The notes under the pieces: model-generated | The model's input: only the letters and a program-made list of their open reading frames with translations | Databases searched by the model: none | Told to the model about the DNA's origin: nothing | Made by a program: the position numbers and the translations under genes | NCBI RefSeq assembly: GCF_011745625.1 | Contig: NW_027191460.1 | Location: 1 to 64,000, forward strand | From: Cladosporium halotolerans | Lineage: Eukaryota | Length of the DNA stretch: 64,000 nt | Direction: 5' to 3' | Part shown: positions 2,651 through 18,206 of the stretch, in pieces | How positions within the stretch are numbered: the stretch's first letter is position 1 | Layout of the letters: the number at the start of each line of letters is the position of its first letter

Positions 2651-4037
2651 GTGACTGAAGGCGCCTGGCCGCGAAGGAATGCGTAGCTTTCGAGCAGGAG
2701 CCTGAGGCTTTCCGCGTGCGCGTGCAAAGGACGCCGGGTGTCTTCCGGTATCCGTCGGAAAAGCGTGGGTGGCATCGGCGTGCTCTGCCTACACGGGGTC
2801 AGCAGCCCCGGCCACGCGCCGAAAACGCGCGCGCACCCGGGACCTACGAGCGACGACGACGACGAGCGGGAGTCTCGGCCTACCCACAGCCTTGCCGACC
2901 GATCGAAGCCCACCAGACAGCCCCAGCGAAGAACCCGCCCAAGCGCCCACCCTCTGGCCCCTGCCTCGCCGTCCGAGAGATTTCCTGGCGCGACCTATGC
3001 CATCCCTGTGCACTGGGCCACAGAACACTGGACGACCGCGGGAGGACTAGAGGAGGAGCCGATAGCCGCCGGAATTGGACGAAAAGGCAGACGACGACTG
3101 TGGTGTCGGGCGGTGAGGCGAGGTGAGGTCTGGGTCTGAGAGAGGCGAGAAAGGGGTTGGACGCTTGCTTGCTATGCAGGCGGAGAAGGCAGGGTCGTTG
3201 AAATCGAGAGAACCGTTACCGATTGGATGCTTTGTCGATTCGAGAGATGCTTCGCGAAAAAACCACCGGGAAACTTCGAAGACGAAAAGGACGAGGGGCA
3301 ATAGCAAGAAACGTAGTGGAAGGAAAATGCACTGCGGTGCGATGCGGTACAATACCGATGATCGATTGTATGATAGGAGGCAATGCAAGACAAATGGAAG
3401 CAACCACGGAATGTAATCTCGGAAAGAATGCTTTTCGATGCAGGCGCGGCGTGCTGTTCGATCTCGCTTCCCCAAGCGGTGGTGGTGCTGCATCTTGTCT
3501 TCCCTTTGACAGTCGTCTTCCCTCTTTGCTCGTATATCGACGATAAATCAACAGCAATCGTCAAAACGTAGCACCAAAGAAACCAAGGCAGCAAAGAATG
3601 TATGTCAAAAACGTATGTGTAATTTGTACAGATGTAGCAGAAATGCAAAAGAGACCGGGAAGACCGATCAAAGGAAAAAAAGTGTCATGTCAAGTCGTTC
3701 CGTGGCGGCGGCGGGCGGCGGCAGTCGATATGCCTGCCTCAGTCCCCACCACTTTCTCTATCCCTTTTCCTTTTATAACCCTTTCCCATTCCATTCCATT
3801 CCATATGTCCAACCGGATGGGGCGGTGGTAGATAACACAAAAAAAAAAGGGAAATGTCCTCGTCGTTTTTTTCCAAGAGAGGATGCGCGGGCGAGAAAGA
3901 ACGCCGGCGCGGTGTTGTATGTATAGTATGCTGATGCAGGAGACAAAAAAGAAAGATTGTAAATAAACCCTCCCGAGATGGAAAAGAACTCCAGATGCTA
4001 AGAACGCGACACGACGACCAAACCAGATACTGGCTTC

Positions 4038-5477
4038 TTACAGGGCGAGAACAGCCACGCCCACGGCCCCGATCAGCGCAGCGCTGTACCCCGACGTCGC
4101 CGTCGGCGCCGCGTACGCCTCGGACGTGATGCTCACGCTCTCCGGCCCGCCGCCGTTGACGTGGCCGCCGGGCCGCACGTTGATGGACGAGACGGCGTCC
4201 GGGACCACGGTCGCGCTGGGGATCGGGTTGGAGCCGTTGGTGATCTCGAGGATGTTGTCGGTGCCCGTGGCGTTGAAGTTGGTGGGCGCGAGCGAGATCT
4301 CGTTGTGCTGCAGGTCGTAGACGACGTAGGCGGAGCGCAGGAAGGTGTCGCCGAGGACGGGCGTGGAGCCTTCCGCGGGCGCGATGCCGAGGATGCAGAC
4401 GGGCTCGCCGCGGTCGACGCCGGCGACGATGACGAGCTCGTCGAGGGTCACGCTGATCGTCGGGCCGGAGAAGGTGAAGTCGATGGTGCCGGAGCCGTAG
4501 CGGAGGCCGCAGTCGACGAAGGCGGCGCCTTGGTCTTGCTGGTAGTCGGCATTGACGGAGTCAAAGATGGTGTAGGCGATGTCGTCGGGGAGGTACATCA
4601 GGCTGCTGCCGGAGTCGAGGAGCACGGGGACGGCGATGTTCTGGGCAATGTTGTCTTTTTCGCCATTGGCACCGACAGAGGTCAGGGCGATGATGAACTC
4701 GGCGTAGGTGCCTTGCTCGGCGATGATGGGGAGGGTTTGGAGCTCCCCGTGGAACTTGGCGGTGTTTATGCCGCCGAAGAGGATGGAGCCGGTGGAGGCA
4801 GAGAGGTCGTTCAGCCACAGACTGTAAGCGTTGACGCCGATGACGCCTTCTTGGACGAGGTGCCAGGGGACGTTCGGGTAGGGGTTGCCACCGTTGTAGG
4901 CGACCGCAACCTCGTTGATAGGGTAGCCGATACCGAGGATGCCTTCTGTTGAACTCGACACATAGCCGACGCCAAACTGCTGCCCCTCCAGATCGATTCC
5001 TCCAAAGCTGAGCGTGTCCGAGACGTAGTCGCCTGTTGATCCCGAGCCGTCGACGTAGCTGATATTGAACTCGCTGTTGATGTACTCATATGTCGACGAT
5101 GAGTTGGCGTCGTATGTTCCGGATAGACTGCAAGGATCTGTGCTCTCGCCGCAAAGTCGGCTGTTGTCGACGTTCACCCAAAGATCACTGCTGCCAGTAT
5201 CCAGATGCAATTTCATGGGCTGGCTCGGCGTGCCAATGCTGACGTTCATGAAATACAGCGTCTCCTCATTGTCCAACGACACCTGCACAGTCTCGCCCGA
5301 CTGTCTTTTACGGAGGCGATTGCGGTCCCGGGTAATGGGATTCGAGACGCTGTTACGCTGGATCTCATGCTGGACGACGCGAGGCGGCGCGGCATCCCGG
5401 GGCTGTTTCAGATTGATGGCGTCGGCGCCAAGAAAGCCAGATGCGGCTGCAGCGAGAGTCGGTATCGAGGGTCGCAT
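4038..5477 (-). CDS. Secreted, probably GPI-anchored A1 aspartic protease (yapsin/OpsB-like), ~479 aa
   Basis: Signal peptide MRPSIPTLAAAASGFLGADA, LRKR propeptide site, catalytic DTGS and DSGS motifs, VLGDTFLRSAYVVYDL, hydrophobic C-terminus. Confidence 0.93.
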   Translation of the reverse strand: MRPSIPTLAAAASGFLGADAINLKQPRDAAPPRVVQHEIQRNSVSNPITRDRNRLRKRQSGETVQVSLDNEETLYFMNVSIGTPSQPMKLHLDTGSSDLWVNVDNSRLCGESTDPCSLSGTYDANSSSTYEYINSEFNISYVDGSGSTGDYVSDTLSFGGIDLEGQQFGVGYVSSSTEGILGIGYPINEVAVAYNGGNPYPNVPWHLVQEGVIGVNAYSLWLNDLSASTGSILFGGINTAKFHGELQTLPIIAEQGTYAEFIIALTSVGANGEKDNIAQNIAVPVLLDSGSSLMYLPDDIAYTIFDSVNADYQQDQGAAFVDCGLRYGSGTIDFTFSGPTISVTLDELVIVAGVDRGEPVCILGIAPAEGSTPVLGDTFLRSAYVVYDLQHNEISLAPTNFNATGTDNILEITNGSNPIPSATVVPDAVSSINVRPGGHVNGGGPESVSITSEAYAAPTATSGYSAALIGAVGVAVLAL

Positions 5478-6180
5478 GGTGATGTGGTGTGAGGGATGGC
5501 TGCAGGGCAGGCAGAACAAACAAACGATAGCAATACAAGCGAAAGCAAGACGGATGGACAGGGCCGATATTATTTCCCTGGCGCGGAAGGCTGGCGGGTA
5601 GGAATGACGAGGGCGATGAGGTATGCGCGGCGGCTTGGAGGGAGGGACCAGCCGGTGGCGTAGCGCCCGCTGTCTTAAACGGGCGACGGGCGAGGCTGGC
5701 GGACGAGTCTCGCGGGCTGAGATGACGACGGACGCGTGGTGATGGATGGTGGCGACGGTATTTACAAATGGGAGATGAAGAAAATGATGGCAGACACGAG
5801 AGTGAAGAAGACGATGGGAACGGGGATGGGCGTGAGCAAACGGCGCGCGGCCGACCCAAGAAACGGGCTCGACGAGCTGCAGGCGCAAAGGCTGATGCTG
5901 CCGGGGCTGGCTGCGTGTGGTGCGTGTTACGACGCTCATGATGGGGCAGGCACGATCAAGGCTCAAGGCTTACGCGCACATCCATCCGTGCCTTCCAGCC
6001 CAGCCCCGGCCGCGCCTCCACCCGCGTTCGCCGCAGCTGGCTCCATCCAGCCAACGAGCCGCTTTGTACGAGACTCACCAGCCCTGCGCCCGTTGCCGCC
6101 AGCAAGCCACTGCAAGGTGCTGCATGCCACTGCAAGGCTGTCCGTCGAGTCTCTACACACTCTCTCCCCGCCGATCCATC

Positions 6181-6269
6181 TCCTCTCCCTGCGCTACGAC
6201 AATCCCACTCCTCTCCCTGCGCTACGACAATCCCACTCCTCTCCCTGCGCTACGATAATCCCACTCCTC
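6181..6269. repeat. 28-bp tandem repeat, 3 copies plus a partial copy (TCCTCTCCCTGCGCTACGACAATCCCAC)
   Basis: Copies at 6181-6208, 6209-6236 and 6237-6264 (one C>T change in the third copy). Confidence 0.95.
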
Positions 6270-7240
6270 CGTGCCTCCCTGCTCCTCCACGTGCTGCTCG
6301 CCGCCGGGTCAAAACAGGCGTCGCTCGCCATCTCTCGCGTAGATCTCACAGCCGCCGCGTCTCCGGGTGCGAGAGCGCCGTCCACCGTGGGCGCCATGCA
6401 CGCCGCTGCCGCCTGACCCTTAAGCTCCCGCCAGTCGCCGTCCAGCACGCGCGTGTCCCGGGAGAGACGTATGTACAATGTGCGCGTCAGCCCGGAGTCG
6501 CGCAACAGTCTGCCCACCCTCCGCTGTCAAATGCACTGCAACTGCACAGCCTTGCCATCTCTTCCGGTCTGCAGCTGCTGAAAAGTCCGACTGTGCGTCG
6601 TGGACTTGCGCGTGCTGATCCGTCTCGGCACCGTCTGCCCTGCCCTGCCCTGCCCTGCCTGCCGTTTAGCCAGCCATTTCGAGTCCTCGGCTTCGACTTC
6701 CGAGGGCGGCACTGCTCTTCACGCCCCGAGGAGGGAATTTGCCCTCGTATCAAGCCTTCTCTCAGGGAGCGAAACGTTCTGCAGTAAATTCGCACCCTCG
6801 CGGCGTCATCGGCTTTCATCATACCCACAGACTTCTAGACCGCGACGAAGGATACCCACCTCGCGCCGCGGCAGCAGCACCTCCTAGCGCTGAAGTCATC
6901 CATCCGTCCAACGCTGTACTCTGCACCGCGCTGCACCGCACAGCACCGCAGGATCGCCAACAACTCTCCTCTCCTCGGCGACGGCTCTCCACCTCTTGCA
7001 GTGTATGTACGTTACGTTGGCACTGAGCTCCCACCACAGCTGTCACAGCCAAGTGCCAACCCGTCGTCGAGAGTCATGCGCCCCGCGCCTGCGCATCTCC
7101 CGCAAGACACAGCCAAGGAACACATCACCACCTGCCCAGGCGTGCGTGCCGCTGACGAGAAGACATGTGAAGCCCGCGCGGCCGGATATCAAGCCCGTCG
7201 CGGCGCTCGCTAGCGGGCGTGGCATCGAATCTAGGTAACG

Positions 7241-7975
7241 TAGTTGAGATCATATACGTTGCGGCGTTCGGTACCGTGGTATGCCTTCTCGCCTGTTGAA
7301 TTGCCGGCCGGCAATTCGCATCCTTTCCCTCCTTTGGGGCTGGAGTGCGATATCGTGAATAGATTGACAAGATGGCTGAGGCTGTGAGAATGCAAGAAGA
7401 AAAAGGAACCAAGATCTGCACGCATATGTATGTATATGCAGGCGGCTATTGGATTTCCATTAGCAATTCCCCGATCCCGGGAAGAGGCTGCATGTAGCTC
7501 GTCCGGAACCGGTCGCTGCATGCTCTTCTCTTCTCTTCCCTTCGCAGCGCGCCAGCCAGCCGTCTGGGTTCCCTCTTTGGCGGATGCGCGACTGGAATCG
7601 CGTGCTACTGTATATCTGCGTGTAACGGTAGCTCTGTCGCCGCCGAGGTAAGCCCCCCGGCTCCCTTGGATTATACATATCGTGGTTATTTTGCGCATAC
7701 GCATTAGCAAAGCGAGCAGACACGTCTCGCAGTCTGCAACGACAAGCAGCGTGTCGTTCACGGAATACGGTACTGCGGATACCCGGCGTTGCGCGAACGC
7801 CGGGCAATTGCTTTCCCACCACGCGCGTAAGCCTCCACAGTAGGTATGTGAGGTTGTTGACCGAGTGCTACGCATTCGAGAATACCACGCGCTTCTCGCC
7901 GAATGACTCTTCGATCCAAACATTGCAGACGACCTGGTCGGACCGGGAAGTCCAGTAAGACGCACGGCTATCGAA
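7241..7975 (+). ncRNA. Candidate large structured non-coding RNA, copy A (family unknown)
   Basis: Colinear conserved blocks shared with 8186-8795 and multiple helices with compensatory/G-U variation. No reading frame is conserved between the copies. Ends are approximate. Confidence 0.55.
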
Positions 7976-8185
7976 TGTCTAACCCCGGCTGGCATACTAA
8001 CTTGTGGTGGACAGGACGACTAGGCACTTGAAATATAGCTCTCGATATGTCTTTAGAGCGATTCGACTAGCGACGATTGAACTGCTGATCGATGCCGAGG
8101 TACTGTTTTTTTATCAGTACTTTGCTGAATGTCTGAAACTTGTTATCGAGGCCGCCGCGAACGCACCAGCCGCCGCGGTCAATGC

Positions 8186-8795
8186 TAGTTGGAGATAAGA
8201 TATGGGGGCAGCTTCTTTCGACTTGCCGGCCGGCAATTTATATCCTTCTCCCTCGTGGCGGGAATGCGATATCGTGTATAGATTAAACAGACGGCTGAGG
8301 CTGCGAGAGCCTTGCCAAATATAGAGAAAAAGCAGATCTGCATGCATGCATGCACGCACGCGTGCGGCTGTTGCATGCAATGCAGCAATTTCCCGATCCT
8401 CGGTGGGAACTCTGCAGCGCGTCCGGAACGGTAGTGTGTTGGAACGCTGCTGCATGTTGTGTTGTTATCAATGCAGCGAGCGAGCCGTCTGGATTTCCTC
8501 TTTGGAGGGATGCGCGACTCAAGCATGCATGCTACATGTGCATATAACCGTAGCTCTGTCGGACAGGCTTGCGAGCCAAGATAAGCTCACAGGCTCACTT
8601 GCGTGATATCGTGGTTATAGTGCGCATATGCGAGCATCGTTCGCGTAAACACCCGGCGTTGCGCAAACGACGGTCAATTGCTCCCAACCCATGCAAAGCT
8701 CAAGTCTTCACTGGTAGCCAATCCCAAACCCGGGAGAGTACCACACGCTCGCCGGACAGTATGCTGATGAAGTCCGGCCTTGCACACACATCGGG
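8186..8795 (+). ncRNA. Candidate large structured non-coding RNA, copy B (family unknown)
   Basis: Diverged tandem paralog of 7241-7975 with the same block order and helices. Ends are approximate. Confidence 0.55.
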
Positions 8796-8916
8796 CACTT
8801 TATTGCCACCTGAAGCTCGAGGCGGGCCCGGTAGCCAATCCCAAGCTCTCGAAGACCACACCCACCACGCCCCGAGCACCACACTCTGCCCAAACGCATA
8901 GCAGAATCGAATACCC

Positions 8917-9837
8917 TCAACCCACCTCTCCCTTCACCCGGAATCTCGCCCCCTCCACCTCCAACCCCCACCCCTCCCAATCCGCCTCCCTCCTGATCTC
9001 CCACTCCCACTCCCTCCCCTCCAACCCCTCCACCCGCCGCTCGGGATCTTCGACCACAGCCCTCACCCTCCCAACCCTGCCCTCCAAAATCCTCCCCTCC
9101 ACCAATCCCTCACACCCCCGCACCACCTCCCTCACAGCCGGCCCAAACGCCCTGGGCGTATAAATATCGAAATTCCTCAACACCAGCGCCAGCGTGCCGA
9201 CGGCCCACTCCGGCTCTGCTGCCGGTCCTGGGGCTGAGGTTGCAAAACCCGGCCCGGCGCAAAAGAGCTGCCCAAGCAAAGTGAGCAGGACTCTGAACGC
9301 CGTGCCGTGCGGGCCGAAGGCTTCGGGCGTGAAGACGCGGACGTCGACCGTTACATCCAGCCTCGTGTGCCGCGAGGGCAGGACAGGCAGGGAGGTCCAG
9401 AGCGGGTAGAGCGTGTAGCTGTTGGCCATGAGGTCCAGCGAGGCCGGGAGGGAGGCGTGCGGGGCGTTGCGGTGGGAGGCGAGGGAGAGGACGTCGGCGC
9501 GCGTTGTGCGGGAGGTGCGCAGGAGGGCGTGGAGGGGTGAAGGGGGGAGGGTGAGGGGGTAGGCGATGTCTTTGAGGGGGTCGTTGGAGGGCGAGAGGCG
9601 GTAGATGCGTGGGCCGGCGAAGGGAGGGCTGGGCGGGGCGGGGCGGTGGGGTGAAAGGAAGTGGGTGTAGATTTGGTCGCGGAGTTCGCGGGGGAGGCGG
9701 AGGAAGGGGGAGTTGGCGTTGTGGTTGGTTGCGGCTGAGGTCTGGGAGTCTGGTGGGGAGAAGTCGACGAGGTCTTCGCGACGCGGCCACTTGAGGTTAC
9801 TGGTGCTTGGGAGTGAGTCGAGGAATCGCGTGGACAT
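8917..9837 (-). CDS. Hypothetical protein with F-box-like/2EXR-like N-terminal motif, 306 aa
   Basis: Single ORF containing SPFLRLPRELRDQIYTHFL. Confidence 0.75.
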   Translation of the reverse strand: MSTRFLDSLPSTSNLKWPRREDLVDFSPPDSQTSAATNHNANSPFLRLPRELRDQIYTHFLSPHRPAPPSPPFAGPRIYRLSPSNDPLKDIAYPLTLPPSPLHALLRTSRTTRADVLSLASHRNAPHASLPASLDLMANSYTLYPLWTSLPVLPSRHTRLDVTVDVRVFTPEAFGPHGTAFRVLLTLLGQLFCAGPGFATSAPGPAAEPEWAVGTLALVLRNFDIYTPRAFGPAVREVVRGCEGLVEGRILEGRVGRVRAVVEDPERRVEGLEGREWEWEIRREADWEGWGLEVEGARFRVKGEVG

Positions 9838-10345
9838 GTTGAGTGATGGCTTCGATGGAATGATCTTGTGACTGAATCGTTTGGACCGGCTATTGAAGAG
9901 TTCGTGCTATTCCTGGGTCCTGCGTAGAGCCAGAGAGGTGAGAACGATTCCTTGGAGGTGGATCAACGTCTAGAATCCAGTTCTCGTTGGCTTCATTCTT
10001 GGAAAAAAAAAGGAAACGTGACGCGTTGTATGCCGAGGTACCAAGAAGTCAGATGTCAGCTTTCGCGGAGATTCCTTTGGGCGCAATGCTGTGAATCAGC
10101 GGCAGTCAAAGGTGTAGGTAGGTCAGCCAGACATTGATGTATCTCAAGCGAGCGCACAGCTCAGTTAATGGTCCATTTCACAGCCCGCAGCTAGCTCCGG
10201 CACCGGCCCATCCAATCATTGAGCTGCGCCACCAGACCCCGAACGTAACCTCAAGCTACGTCTGTACAACCACCAATCTACCAGGTCGACAAGAACACCT
10301 CGAACAACCAAGCCAGACCACCGCCAACCCGGCACCTCTCTCAAG

Positions 10346-16207: not shown

Positions 16208-18206
16208 ATGTCGGAATACATTGGGTGGGTATCTAGCCACAGTACCCTCCCAAAACCCGGGTCATACTGACCACACTGTGCTACAGGTCCCGCATCTCGC
16301 TCATCTCCAAGTCCGATATCAAGTATGTCGGCACCTTGCATGAAATCAACAGCGAATCCTCTACCATCGCCCTCGAGAATGTTACCTCCTACGGTACCGA
16401 GGGTCGCCGTGGCGACCCTTCCCAAGAGCTCCCTGGCTCTGACCAGATCTACGAGTACATCGTCTTCCGCGGCAGTGATGTGAAAGAGCTGTCAATGGTC
16501 GAGGCACCGAAGGAGAACCAGCCGCCGGCGATGCCGAATGATCCTGCCATCATGGGAGTACGTGCGAATCTCCCCCAATCCCACCAGCGACAAGCGCAAT
16601 GGCTTTCAAGATGAAGTATTCTTGGATGTAAACACATTACTCTTCTGAGAGCGCAAAAACAATGCGGATAACTCCTTGTTGCCTTCCTCCTGATCAATCC
16701 ATATGCGCGTTGCGTTGGAGGGTTATTGGCGAAAGCTGGACATGTGACTAACAAGCATTTCAGTCGACGCGCCCTCCCCAGCAGCAGCAACCTCAGCAGC
16801 CGAATCAGCAGCAATTTCGCAACCAGCCGGGCCAGCAACCCCCGTATCCTCCCTACGGTTTTCCTCCTGGACCTCCCCCTCCTTTCCAGCAGCAGTCTCG
16901 CTTCCAGGGCCCTGGCGGACCTCACGGGTTCCCAGGCACCCCAGGTGCTGTTCCCGGATATGGCATGGGCTTTGCGCCGCCGCCTCCTGGCTATGGCATG
17001 CCGCCGCCGTATGGACCTCCCGGTCAAGGTTTCCCGCCGCCTCCTCCCGGCGCGTTTTCTCCGAACAACCAGCCTATGCCGATTGGGCCACCTGGCCAGC
17101 AGAGACCCCCTCAGATGCAAGGCGCTACCCCCGGACCCGTTGGAAGTGGAAGCAAGCAGGGTACACCGCAGCCGGCGTCTGCTCAAGCGCCCCAGCCGCC
17201 GCCCGTCCAGGCCAACATGAAGCCTGTTGAAATGTCCACCACTCCTGCTCCTCCGTCCGCGGTCCCTGCCACCGGTCCTCCGCCGCCGGTCGAATCGAAG
17301 CCTTCGCCCGCTGCAGCAACTGCGCCCTCTGCCCCTGCACAGGCTCCTCACCAGACTGCTGCTAAGAAGGCAGCGAACAGTCGCGTTGCCTTGCCTCTTG
17401 CGCCTAATGCCGCATCGAAGCCCGCTGTCCCCAAGCAAGCTGCAGCCGGCGGGCAAGCTGCACCTGCACCTGCCGCCCAGCCCCAGTCTTACGCCGATGC
17501 CACGCACGCCGCTACTGCCGCCGTCGCTGCCGCTATGGCGAAGCTTGGTCCTGCGTCTCAGCAGCAGCAACAGGCCGGAGGAACCCTGGATAACCTGACT
17601 CAGAAAGTAAACCAGATGAGGGTGCATGACGCCCCTGCTCGTGGTCGCGGACGTGGCCGCGGCCGCGGTGGCCCTGCTGGTGGAAGGCGTGAAAGCGCGC
17701 ACAAGCCCATGGAGGTCCCGACGGAAGACTACGATTTCGAAAGCGCCAATGCGAAGTTCAACAAGCAGGATCTCATTAAGGAGCAGATTGCTACCGGCTC
17801 TCCGGTCACCAGCCCCCAGAATGGCGACACTCCGGATCCGATTGCCAACGGCCACACCGAGTCTGAGGAAGTCGTCATCCCCGCGAAGCCTGGCGCCGAG
17901 AAGGGTTACGACAAGCAGTCTTCCTTCTTCGACAACATTAGCAGCGATCTCAAGGATCGCATGGATGCGCAGGGCGAGAGCGTCGACGGACGCGCTATGC
18001 GCCGTGAGGAGCGCAACAAGAACGTTGATACTTTTGGTCAGGGCTCTGTGGATAACGGCTACCGTGGCGGTTTCCGCGGCCGTGGCAGAGGCGGTCGTGG
18101 CTACGGTCGCGGTGGTCCTCGTGGTGGCTACCGCGGCGGCTTTGACCCCAGGGGTGCCCCGAGGGGACGCGGCCGCGGCGGTCCCAACGAGATGACCACG
18201 GCCTAG
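16208..18206 (+). CDS. SCD6: Scd6/Lsm14 (RAP55/Sum2) P-body translational repressor
   Basis: MSEYIG/SRISLISKSDIKYVG Lsm14 domain across intron 16225-16286; intron 16558-16763; DYDFESANAKF, FFD and TFG boxes; RGG tail. Confidence 0.93.
16605..16696 (+). ncRNA. snR52: Intronic box C/D snoRNA, snR52-like (predicted guide for the 18S Am420-equivalent)
   Basis: C-like box AAGATGA 16608, D' CTGA 16645, D CTGA 16690. Guide TGTTGCCTTCCT (16677-16688) is complementary to conserved 18S AGGAAGGCAGCA. Flanking stem GCGCAATGG/CCATATGCGC. Confidence 0.78.

Follow-up and report, generated by a model that had tools for sequence, protein, structure and literature searches.

A diverged tandem pair of hairpin-rich, non-coding repeats upstream of an aspartyl protease gene in Cladosporium halotolerans, with base-pair changes at the level of chance

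Does the long intergenic region upstream of an aspartyl protease gene in Cladosporium halotolerans encode a new structured RNA? The window analysed here is a stretch of 64,000 nucleotides, and the original prediction, made from its letters, saw between 7241 and 8795 two copies of a large, covarying multibranch RNA read from the plus strand. Our analysis bears out the pair and its hairpins, and leaves the conserved fold unsupported.

The layout of the locus is as follows.

4038..5492, minus strand: aspartyl protease gene (Pfam Asp PF00026, E 1.1e-73)
7185..7960, no strand assigned: copy A of the duplicated unit; its blocks lie in a core of 7241-7954, with weaker homology from about 7185
7961..8139, no strand assigned: inter-copy stretch, without a counterpart after copy B
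8140..8795, no strand assigned: copy B of the tandem duplication; the block core is 8186-8775
8774..8861, no strand assigned: nested third partial copy of the tail of copy B, resembling 8653-8746 (and also 7779-7838 in copy A)
8917..9837, minus strand: 306-aa ORF with a weak likeness to Pfam 2EXR (E 0.007; 17.9 bits, below the cut-off of 24.8)

Copies A and B are direct repeats of 0.6-0.8 kb with about 180-230 nt of unrelated sequence between them, so spaced that the unit measures about 0.93-0.95 kb. Across the core of their alignment (columns 70-760 of alignment A1) they are 70.0% identical, with 381 identical columns, 86 transitions, 77 transversions and 146 gap columns; the uncorrected divergence is about 30%. 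A blastn comparison pairs 7293-7702 with 8215-8631 (E 4e-44). All 16 of the sequence blocks listed in the original prediction occur once per copy and in the same order, the linkers between them do vary in length in the alignment, and the strings of the helices that it named lie where it placed them. Two of its measurements need adjustment. The separation of 925-945 nt is right at its upper end, with the actual spacing of blocks running from 822 to 945 nt, and the start at 7241 is too far to the right, since homology begins about 55 nt earlier, near 7185 and 8140. The longest period considered by TRF was 500, and hence the 920-nt period went unreported there. The third partial copy matches its source at 69% over 94 columns (E 2e-5 in a blastn-type comparison within the window) and carries a second GGTAGCCAATCCCAA.

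The same tandem layout is present in independent assemblies of relatives (X1 record 2, covering 3793-9026, and X5 record 17, covering 6668-8456), and thus it is not an artefact of assembly. Both copies are kept in all the relatives seen, which are about 95-97% alike (records 2, 8-10, 17 and 25).

The element is non-coding. Gap runs between the copies have lengths of 1, 2, 3, 4, 5, 8, 11, 13, 17, 22 and 46, so that indels fall out of frame. Five ORFs inside the element match no Pfam family at E ≤ 0.01, and the 26 of 50 stop-to-stop frames that were searched (the other 24 include five of 49-68 aa) give a best E of 0.042, all far below the cut-offs. Among 5.8 billion proteins a 254-aa minus-strand ORF finds only two cluster matches, both Logan-derived. 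In the first, 13 of 125 residues differ before the frame is lost; in the second, 12 of 95 aligned residues differ, with 83 of 97 columns identical and two one-residue gaps. The longest ORF of copy B has no match in the same search. The ORFs are broken in relatives by truncation or frameshift, and there is neither a maintained reading frame nor a credible domain, in agreement with the non-coding character first proposed for the element. The frames tested likewise hold no remnant of a transposase or reverse transcriptase, neither of which the original prediction had seen nearby, and a tRNA scan returns no genes.

Is the region transcribed? It forms part of an unusually long intergenic region of about 3.4 kb. 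The element lies on the 5′ side of the protease gene, about 1.7-3.3 kb upstream of the start codon, while the 306-aa ORF presents its 3′ end to copy B. Two of the contig sets, X1 and X6, carry a spliced GT..AG joint of the EMC7 gene (10871>10952), and X6, which has a contig over 4230-5736, also shows a poly-A loose end at 3607; on these grounds we infer that both behave as RNA. X1 crosses the whole element in one contig (3793-9026), with depth above zero in all 30 bins, so that a low DNA background may bridge this 5.1-kb contig. In X6 a contig spans 7980-8593, next to bins of zero depth, and cover is absent over 5903-7771 and 8840-9640. Such contigs are blind to the strand, ends and level of a transcript. 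At least some of the region is transcribed.

The X1 contig also skips 7955-8010. The joint, 7954>8011, reads GT..GG at its ends in the window and stops 4 nt before a canonical ACAG at 8014, and the plus strand over 7955-8014 reads like an intron (GTAAGA ... TACTAAC ... ACAG). Because the joint opens exactly at GTAAGA and encloses TACTAAC it could mean a spliced plus-strand RNA; the skip could equally be a 56-nt indel between strains. A second X1 skip lies nearby at 7822>7889, with 7 letters between, and its ends are not intron-like.

The abundance of hairpins, on which the idea of a structured RNA was built, is genuine. Copy A contains 17 hairpins of 6 bp where 7.3 are expected (3 of 300 shuffles reach 17), and copy B contains 18 against 6.9 (1 of 300 shuffles reaches 18), whereas a control of neighbouring intergenic DNA has 18 against 18.7. 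Short inverted repeats and palindromes are therefore about 2.4-fold in excess in both copies, with no excess in the adjacent intergenic DNA. Palindromes of at least 8 nt number 13 in copy B against 3.3 expected, five of the 13 coming from (TGCA)n. The principal elements are these.

7298..7317, no strand assigned: 20-nt perfect palindrome GAATTGCCGGCCGGCAATTC, whose counterpart in copy B is a 14-nt palindrome at 8223-8236
7364..7572, no strand assigned: domain of copy A, bounded by the long-range complement AGATGGCTG(7370)/CAGCCGTCT(7557), from the MFE fold and the strings
8282..8498, no strand assigned: counterpart domain in copy B, AGACGGCT(8289)/AGCCGTCT(8483), from the MFE fold and the strings

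The 20-nt palindrome has no other occurrence in the window. The copy A domain encloses hairpins at 7422-7439, 7445-7464, 7490-7523 and 7514-7549; that of copy B includes the palindromic (TGCA)n microsatellite at 8339-8354 and a triple GCAGCG(8414)/CGCTGC(8445)/GCAGCG(8473). Where hairpins are shared in position, their arms are either identical in both copies or lie within self-complementary microsatellite of the (TGCA)n type.

Has a fold been preserved as the copies diverged? If these were paralogous genes for a large structured plus-strand RNA, a ribozyme or the scaffold of an RNP, compensatory change should have kept the fold, and some observations are of the right kind. Both copies are hairpin-rich, and both MFE folds hold a long-range helix GAYGGCU/AGCCGUC around a multibranch domain, with several hairpins at homologous places. 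There is a clean exchange of A-U for G-C (7448/7461 against 8370/8383), and a CGCTGC/GCAGCG stem is kept while the loops that it encloses have fully diverged. In one relative, copy A matches copy B at positions 7373, 7385 and 7571, and C at 7373 and 7385 makes C-G where the window has U-G; among the relatives, T7460>G also replaces a T.T mismatch by U.G. Pairing on the plus strand would accommodate every one of these changes, though they are few, and the region is covered by the RNA-like contigs.

None of the quantitative tests bears this out. In the long-range domain we count six two-sided changes on the plus strand against 5.2 in column shuffles (124 of 300 shuffles have at least six), and on the minus strand four against 5.3 (236 of 300 shuffles reach four); one-sided changes number six against 8.5 in 300 column shuffles. 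The statement that the differences between the copies preserve pairing is thus matched by shuffled columns. Two of the six pairs that look compensatory fall in the (TGCA)n-type microsatellite and three in poorly aligned linker, and the 9-bp hairpin at 7782-7804 is degraded in copy B without compensation. The structure conservation index is 0.31-0.60 over 18 window-by-strand tests, the minus strand doing as well as or better than the plus; the observed energy is reached by no shuffle in one of nine windows on the plus strand and in three of nine on the minus. Energy excess in the alignment is the same for both strands (z_E -2.65 on plus, -2.61 on minus), and single-sequence z-scores are -2.3 and -2.5 on plus, -1.3 and -2.8 on minus. 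G-U wobbles, which had been taken to favour the plus strand, occur as 8 pairs in the predicted consensus of the plus strand and 6 in that of the minus. Moreover, the tail of copy A has indels of 56-66 nt in close relatives, whose ORF pieces also reveal changes in four block codons.

Comparison with known families adds nothing in favour. In size (500-700 nt) and in their many predicted hairpins the copies resemble RNase P/MRP, telomerase, SRP RNA, snRNAs, group I/II introns and small ribozymes; unlike these they have no Rfam match, no covariation above chance and no preference for a strand. The Rfam search that had been put forward as a check gave no match at E ≤ 1 with 4227 models (Rfam 15) over 6000-10000 on both strands, in keeping with the failure to see by eye any signature of RNase P/MRP, SRP, snRNA, group I/II introns, ribozymes or telomerase. 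Scanned at the gathering score, the whole window yields only snoZ13_snr52, at 16599-16701.

A covarying plus-strand multibranch RNA, as first proposed, therefore finds covariation at the level of shuffles, low structure conservation indices and an equal energy excess on the two strands. With just two homologous sequences the tests have low power, and so a conserved fold is unsupported rather than disproved. We regard paralogous genes for a structured RNA as very improbable. A fuller version can be drawn, in which the copies would be paralogous plus-strand loci for a hairpin-rich RNA belonging to a family outside Rfam, transcribed divergently upstream of the protease gene and possibly spliced at 7955-8010/8014, with a conserved core closed by GAYGGCU/AGCCGUC and the GCAGCG-CGCUGC-GCAGCG triple forming two mutually exclusive hairpins as a structural switch. 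So specific a model is a long shot, to which we attach very little weight.

Could the repeats instead be the relic of a mobile element? Two direct repeats of this length flanking a short unrelated stretch might be decayed LTRs left by a very old LTR or TRIM-like element that lost its interior, or else a non-autonomous element inserted twice side by side, and a hairpin-rich, non-coding region with no evident cellular function would suit either origin. Against this, no further copies of the unit or matches to its blocks occur within the 64 kb, and the frames tested hold no trace of integrase or gag either. Terminal inverted repeats are absent from the unit ends among the 25 of 29 inverted pairs listed. 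Direct reading finds no TGG-type primer-binding site after copy A (GTAAGACGCACGG) and no purine tract before copy B (GCCGCCGCGGTCAATGC); decay has gone too far at the unit ends for TG..CA or a target-site duplication to be judged. Contig depth in DNA-like runs is the same over the element as over its flanks (13.8 against 9-24 in X5; 6.2-7.4 against 4.4-8.2 in X22), depth not being copy number. Duplicated DNA attracts RIP in many filamentous fungi, yet there is no signature of it here: the substitutions are a mixture of transitions and transversions, TpA/ApT is 0.76 and 0.59 in the copies against 0.57 for the window, and GC is 0.55 and 0.54. These results, limited to the 64 kb, are not a strong test, and we consider a mobile origin quite unlikely.

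What the neighbourhood does show is local instability. A 28-nt repeat occupies 6180-6269 and differs in length by 72 nt in X1 and X5, and X1 lacks 66 and 56 nt of the window's sequence in the tail of copy A. Head-to-tail units, nested re-duplication, a variable minisatellite, mixed substitutions and many indels are all features of ordinary tandem segmental duplication and minisatellite instability. The locus departs from that pattern in being old yet retaining both copies in every relative seen, in its excess of hairpins and in a modest excess of conserved blocks.

How much selection do the blocks reflect? Runs of at least 10 identical columns number 10 against 4.5 expected, a figure reached in 10 of 5000 shuffles; the longest run, of 16 columns, is reached in 2089 of 5000. 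When uniformly decayed duplicates are simulated and re-aligned with MAFFT, 3 of 120 attain 10 runs (the means expected range over 4.5-4.9). The block excess over uniform decay is modest. In close relatives 4 of 49 block codons are changed and 32 of 197 linker codons (odds ratio 0.46, p 0.18), a comparison drawn from ORF translations and so missing silent changes. From the block excess and this non-significant sparing, some sites may be under selection. Letters that differ between X1 and the window number 3.0-3.4 per 100 over the element and 2.3-2.8 per 100 over the neighbouring genes. The single metagenome contig found by scanning for the pattern CCTCTTTGG-N(1-3)-GGATGCGCGACT was rejected as a chance match, with only 31 nt common to the window; other block patterns have no matches in contigs of prokaryote genomes.

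Selection on DNA would be expected if a cis-regulatory module had been doubled. The palindromes TTGCCGGCCGGCAA, CGATATCG, TGCGCA, TCCGGA and GCAATTGC, the hairpin CCCGGCGTT...AACGCCGGG and the CCAAT-bearing repeat would then be candidate sites for dimeric factors controlling the protease or a neighbour. Perfect palindromes act at the level of DNA and would account for the strand-symmetric energy excess, the blocks are modestly over-represented and tend to be spared in relatives, and there is a protease gene downstream of the element. There is a precedent in Aspergillus, where PMC8419926, in the part drawn on here, describes a Zn2Cys6 protease regulator whose site is of CCG/CGG type, together with validated CCAAT sites. 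Our locus resembles such PrtT promoters in its CGG/CCG palindromes and in placing two CCAAT-bearing repeats upstream of a protease gene. It differs from those described in Aspergillus in that the PrtT site CCGHCGG is absent from both copies (it occurs once in 5737-7184, against 1.06 expected) and in that known regulator motifs are not enriched over the copies. CCAAT, CreA and PacC motifs are as common as expected or rarer, and an AreA motif is marginal in copy B only, with 4 occurrences for 1.6 expected (20 of 300 shuffles do as well). Elsewhere in the 64 kb the blocks are absent, the sparing in relatives is not significant, and at 1.5-3 kb from the likely mRNA start (the X6 contig ends at 5736) the element is far away for a fungal promoter. 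With no known motif enriched, the regulatory part lacks positive support, and we consider a duplicated module rather unlikely.

We prefer to explain the pair by an old, local tandem duplication of non-coding DNA upstream of the protease gene, giving rise to long non-coding RNA that has no conserved fold, a reading in which we place a little more belief than doubt. The duplication would most likely have arisen by unequal exchange or slippage in replication, as suggested by the presence in the same region of the 28-nt minisatellite, short microsatellites and a nested re-duplication of 90-120 nt. Since then the copies would have undergone mostly near-neutral drift, by substitutions and many small indels. 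The palindromes, inverted repeats and (TGCA)n tracts would be features of the DNA, folding equally well on either strand, and in this way may mimic a conserved multibranch RNA. Transcription would probably give long non-coding or 5′-extended Pol II transcripts. Any function would be exerted in cis on a neighbouring promoter, through palindromic protein-binding sites or the act of upstream transcription, rather than through a conserved RNA fold.

There are parallels for such an arrangement. SRG1 upstream of SER3, the fbp1 mlonRNA cascade, pHO-lncRNA 2.7 kb upstream of HO and RZE1 2.5 kb upstream of ZNF2 are fungal lncRNAs that act in cis from upstream positions (PMC12566771, in the part used here). 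Like these the element is non-coding, lies 1.5-3.3 kb upstream of the gene that would be regulated, and is covered by RNA-like contigs; its rapid drift in sequence is also usual for fungal lncRNAs according to the same part of that source. It differs in its tandem duplication, which that part of PMC12566771 does not describe for its examples.

As matters stand, this is just another old tandem duplication in intergenic DNA that is transcribed, and it matters little in itself. It does carry a caution: where two diverged paralogs are rich in palindromes and self-complementary microsatellites, the eye readily finds pairs that look convincingly compensatory, yet shuffled columns yield as many. Should the minority reading prove true, the locus would add to filamentous fungi a new structured lncRNA family tied to protease gene control, and would be of moderate interest.

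The region 7241-8795 consists of two diverged head-to-tail copies of a single unit, designated copy A (~7185/7241-7960) and copy B (~8140/8186-8795), which together form the element. The 16 ordered blocks of the original prediction each occur once in copy A and once in copy B with their order kept, and are not found elsewhere in the 64-kb window. Their spacing had been placed at ~925-945 nt; from block start to block start it is 822 to 945 nt. Alignment of the copies using MAFFT gives 973 columns, of which the core (columns 70-760) contains 381 identities, 86 transitions, 77 transversions and 146 gap columns, i.e. 70.0% identity. A blastn search within the window matches 7293-7702 to 8215-8631 (E 4e-44), finds no further copy of the unit in the 64 kb, and shows that the tail segment 8653-8746 recurs once at 8774-8861. 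One metagenome scan for distant homologs returned a chance match only. Weaker homology to the left of the core reaches ~7185/8140, and the unit is therefore ~0.93-0.95 kb in length. The ~180 nt 3′ of copy A (7961-8139) are without counterpart past copy B.

An identical layout is present in the independent assemblies of relatives, taken from contigs of sequencing runs X1 (record 2, 3793-9026), X5 (record 17, 6668-8456) and X22 (records 8-10). Thus the duplication cannot be put down to misassembly, and it is older than the split of these relatives, which are ~95-97% alike. The segment 7716-7777 is specific to copy A, lying opposite gaps of 46 and 13 columns in copy B, and packs in four overlapping hairpins of 6-7 bp. 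It may have arisen by template switching or by a small palindromic insertion.

The element sits in a 3.4-kb gap separating two minus-strand genes, with the following neighbours:

4038-5492, minus strand: aspartyl protease gene (Pfam Asp, E 1.1e-73), 5′ end towards the element
6180-6269: 28-nt minisatellite (3.2 copies, 98% matches), in the same gap, upstream of the protease gene
8917-9837, minus strand: 306-aa ORF with weak 2EXR likeness, under the cut-off, 3′ end towards copy B
beyond the 306-aa ORF, plus strand: EMC7, the next gene

Short microsatellites are also present in this gap. The X1 and X5 contigs omit 72 nt at the minisatellite (6202>6275), and its copy number therefore differs among relatives. 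On the plus strand 8900-9170 contains an extended C/T-rich tract, with two CCAAT-bearing repeats (8713, 8830) before it and TATAAATA after it, near 9160; by its sequence it resembles a classic promoter of filamentous fungi. The tract nevertheless runs across the 3′ half of the 306-aa ORF, for which the gene model is uncertain. The sole Rfam match at gathering score in the window is a C/D-box snoRNA gene at 16599-16701 on the plus strand (snoZ13_snr52, 71 bits against a gathering score of 47, E 5e-12).

Is the element a structured RNA? The original prediction was of a covarying non-coding RNA read from the plus strand. In Rfam 15 neither strand of the element gives a match at E≤1. Single-copy folding energies are modest and not strand-specific, with z-scores of –2.3 (A plus), –1.3 (A minus), –2.5 (B plus) and –2.8 (B minus) against 20 shuffles each. 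The remaining structure tests compare two homologous sequences, copies A and B. In sliding windows of 160 columns the structure conservation index is 0.31-0.60, and consensus energies reached by none of 60 column shuffles occur in one of nine windows on the plus strand and three of nine on the minus. For the central domain closed by the long-range complement (7364-7572 versus 8282-8498) the RNAalifold consensus has 40 pairs on the plus strand, six of them changed on both sides, and 38 on the minus, four of them so changed. Column shuffles give means of 5.2 and 5.3 two-sided changes, with at least six in 124/300 (plus) and at least four in 236/300 (minus). The apparent covariation is thus no more than chance gives for two sequences with this composition and 70% identity. 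Of the six putative compensatory pairs two fall within a (TGCA)n-type self-complementary microsatellite (7422-7439/8339-8354) and three within a badly aligned linker, leaving one clean A-U to G-C change (7448/7461 versus 8370/8383). Copy A's strongest hairpin (9 bp, 7782-7804) has decayed in copy B without compensating changes. The consensus energy does beat the shuffles, equally on both strands (z = –2.65 plus and –2.61 minus, reached by 3/300 on each), and predicted pairs use eight G-U on the plus strand and six on the minus, so the argument for a plus-strand RNA fails. A structured RNA is thus unsupported and, with two homologous sequences available for comparison, improbable rather than disproved.

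The copies are nevertheless rich in hairpins. Inverted repeats able to form 6-bp hairpins are ~2.4 times as frequent as in dinucleotide shuffles in both, at 17 versus 7.3 expected in copy A (reached by 3/300 shuffles) and 18 versus 6.9 in copy B (1/300); the adjacent intergenic control (5737-7184) has 18 versus 18.7. Copy B contains 13 palindromes of at least 8 nt versus 3.3 expected, five of them from (TGCA)n. Where hairpins occupy shared positions, e.g. the palindrome TTGCCGGCCGGCAA, the arms are identical in both copies, and are thus uninformative on covariation; the CGCTGC/GCAGCG arms are likewise identical, with fully diverged enclosed loops. Perfect palindromes are a DNA-level feature folding alike on either strand, which fits the symmetric energies.

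The element is non-coding. In the alignment of the copies the gap runs are 1, 2, 3, 4, 5, 8, 11, 13, 17, 22 and 46 columns long. None of five ORFs in the element reaches a Pfam family at E≤0.01, and for 26/50 stop-to-stop frames (≥30 aa) the best Pfam value is E 0.042, which falls well short of the cut-offs. A minus-strand ORF of 254 aa, the longest, lies across copy A and has just two cluster matches in a set of 5.8 billion proteins, both derived from close relatives' Logan assemblies. The first matches residues 1-125 at 90% identity before the frame is lost; the second covers residues 159-254, with 83/97 columns identical and two one-residue gaps. So many amino-acid changes at ~3-4% DNA divergence indicate that this ORF is without protein-level constraint. 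The longest ORF of copy B has no match.

A duplicated regulatory module under selection is a rival reading, and might explain why long identical runs occur at ~2 times the uniform-decay frequency: there are 10 runs of at least 10 columns versus 4.5 in shuffles (10/5000 reach 10) and 4.9 on average when simulated duplicates are aligned anew with MAFFT (3/120 reach 10). The longest, of 16 columns, is ordinary compared with shuffles. Among close relatives changed codons number 4/49 in blocks versus 32/197 in linkers (odds ratio 0.46, p 0.18), in ORF translations that are blind to silent changes. X1 differs from the window by 3.0 and 3.4 letters per 100 in the element, compared with 2.3 in the protease part of the contig, 2.7-2.8 in EMC7 exons and 4.2-7.3 in the 2EXR-like ORF, and the relatives' indels in the region include at least those of 56, 66 and 72 nt among the rows listed. 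Constraint on the element is thus weak at most. Known regulator motifs are not enriched in copies A and B; the PrtT motif, CCGHCGG in the available text of PMC8419926, occurs in neither.

The relic of a transposable element is unlikely. No inverted terminal repeats link the unit ends among the inverted pairs listed, inspection of the junctions reveals no primer-binding site or polypurine tract, and within the 64-kb window the unit has no further copy. Nor is there a RIP-like spectrum, with 86 transitions versus 77 transversions and GC of 0.54-0.55 in the two copies. This suggests that, in this lineage, RIP has been inactive or ineffective on this tandem duplicate of ~0.7-0.9 kb.

X1 and X6, another of the runs, behave as RNA, since the spliced GT..AG joint of EMC7 (10871>10952) is present in both, among four runs compared, and X6 has a poly-A loose end at 3607; none of the runs listed as matching the stretch is recorded as RNA. 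A single 5099-nt X1 contig runs from 3793 to 9026, spanning the protease gene and the entire intergenic region, and with some depth in 30/30 bins a faint DNA background could bridge it. The X6 protease contig stops at 5736; 7980-8593 belongs to another X6 contig (625 nt, depth 6.25), next to zero-depth bins. Contigs carry no strand, end or level information. If 3607 and 5736 mark its ends, as is likely, the protease mRNA has UTRs of ~250 nt (5′) and ~430 nt (3′). The X1 contig omits 7955-8010, starting exactly at GTAAGA and including TACTAAC, and so resembling the verified EMC7 intron (GTGAGT...GCTAAT...CAG), yet the omission stops 4 nt short of a canonical ACAG. A second skip close by (7822>7889 as reported, with seven letters between) has ends that are not intron-like. 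We regard a real plus-strand splice at 7955-8010 as possible, leaning slightly against it. Words from 7100-8900 are found in at least 24 runs from 18 studies, with 15 or more coded organism labels, among the runs listed, most of which carry small shares (0.08-0.19).

In our best-supported reading, hairpin- and palindrome-rich non-coding DNA was duplicated in tandem long ago, within an upstream region prone to repeats, and drifts under little constraint and is transcribed as long non-coding or 5′-extended RNA. Of the rivals, a selected regulatory module ranks first, the relic of a transposable element second and the structured RNA last. In the available text of PMC12566771 the lncRNAs of SRG1/SER3, the fbp1 cascade, pHO-lncRNA and RZE1 act from 2-3 kb upstream. 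Any function of the element would most plausibly be exerted in cis.
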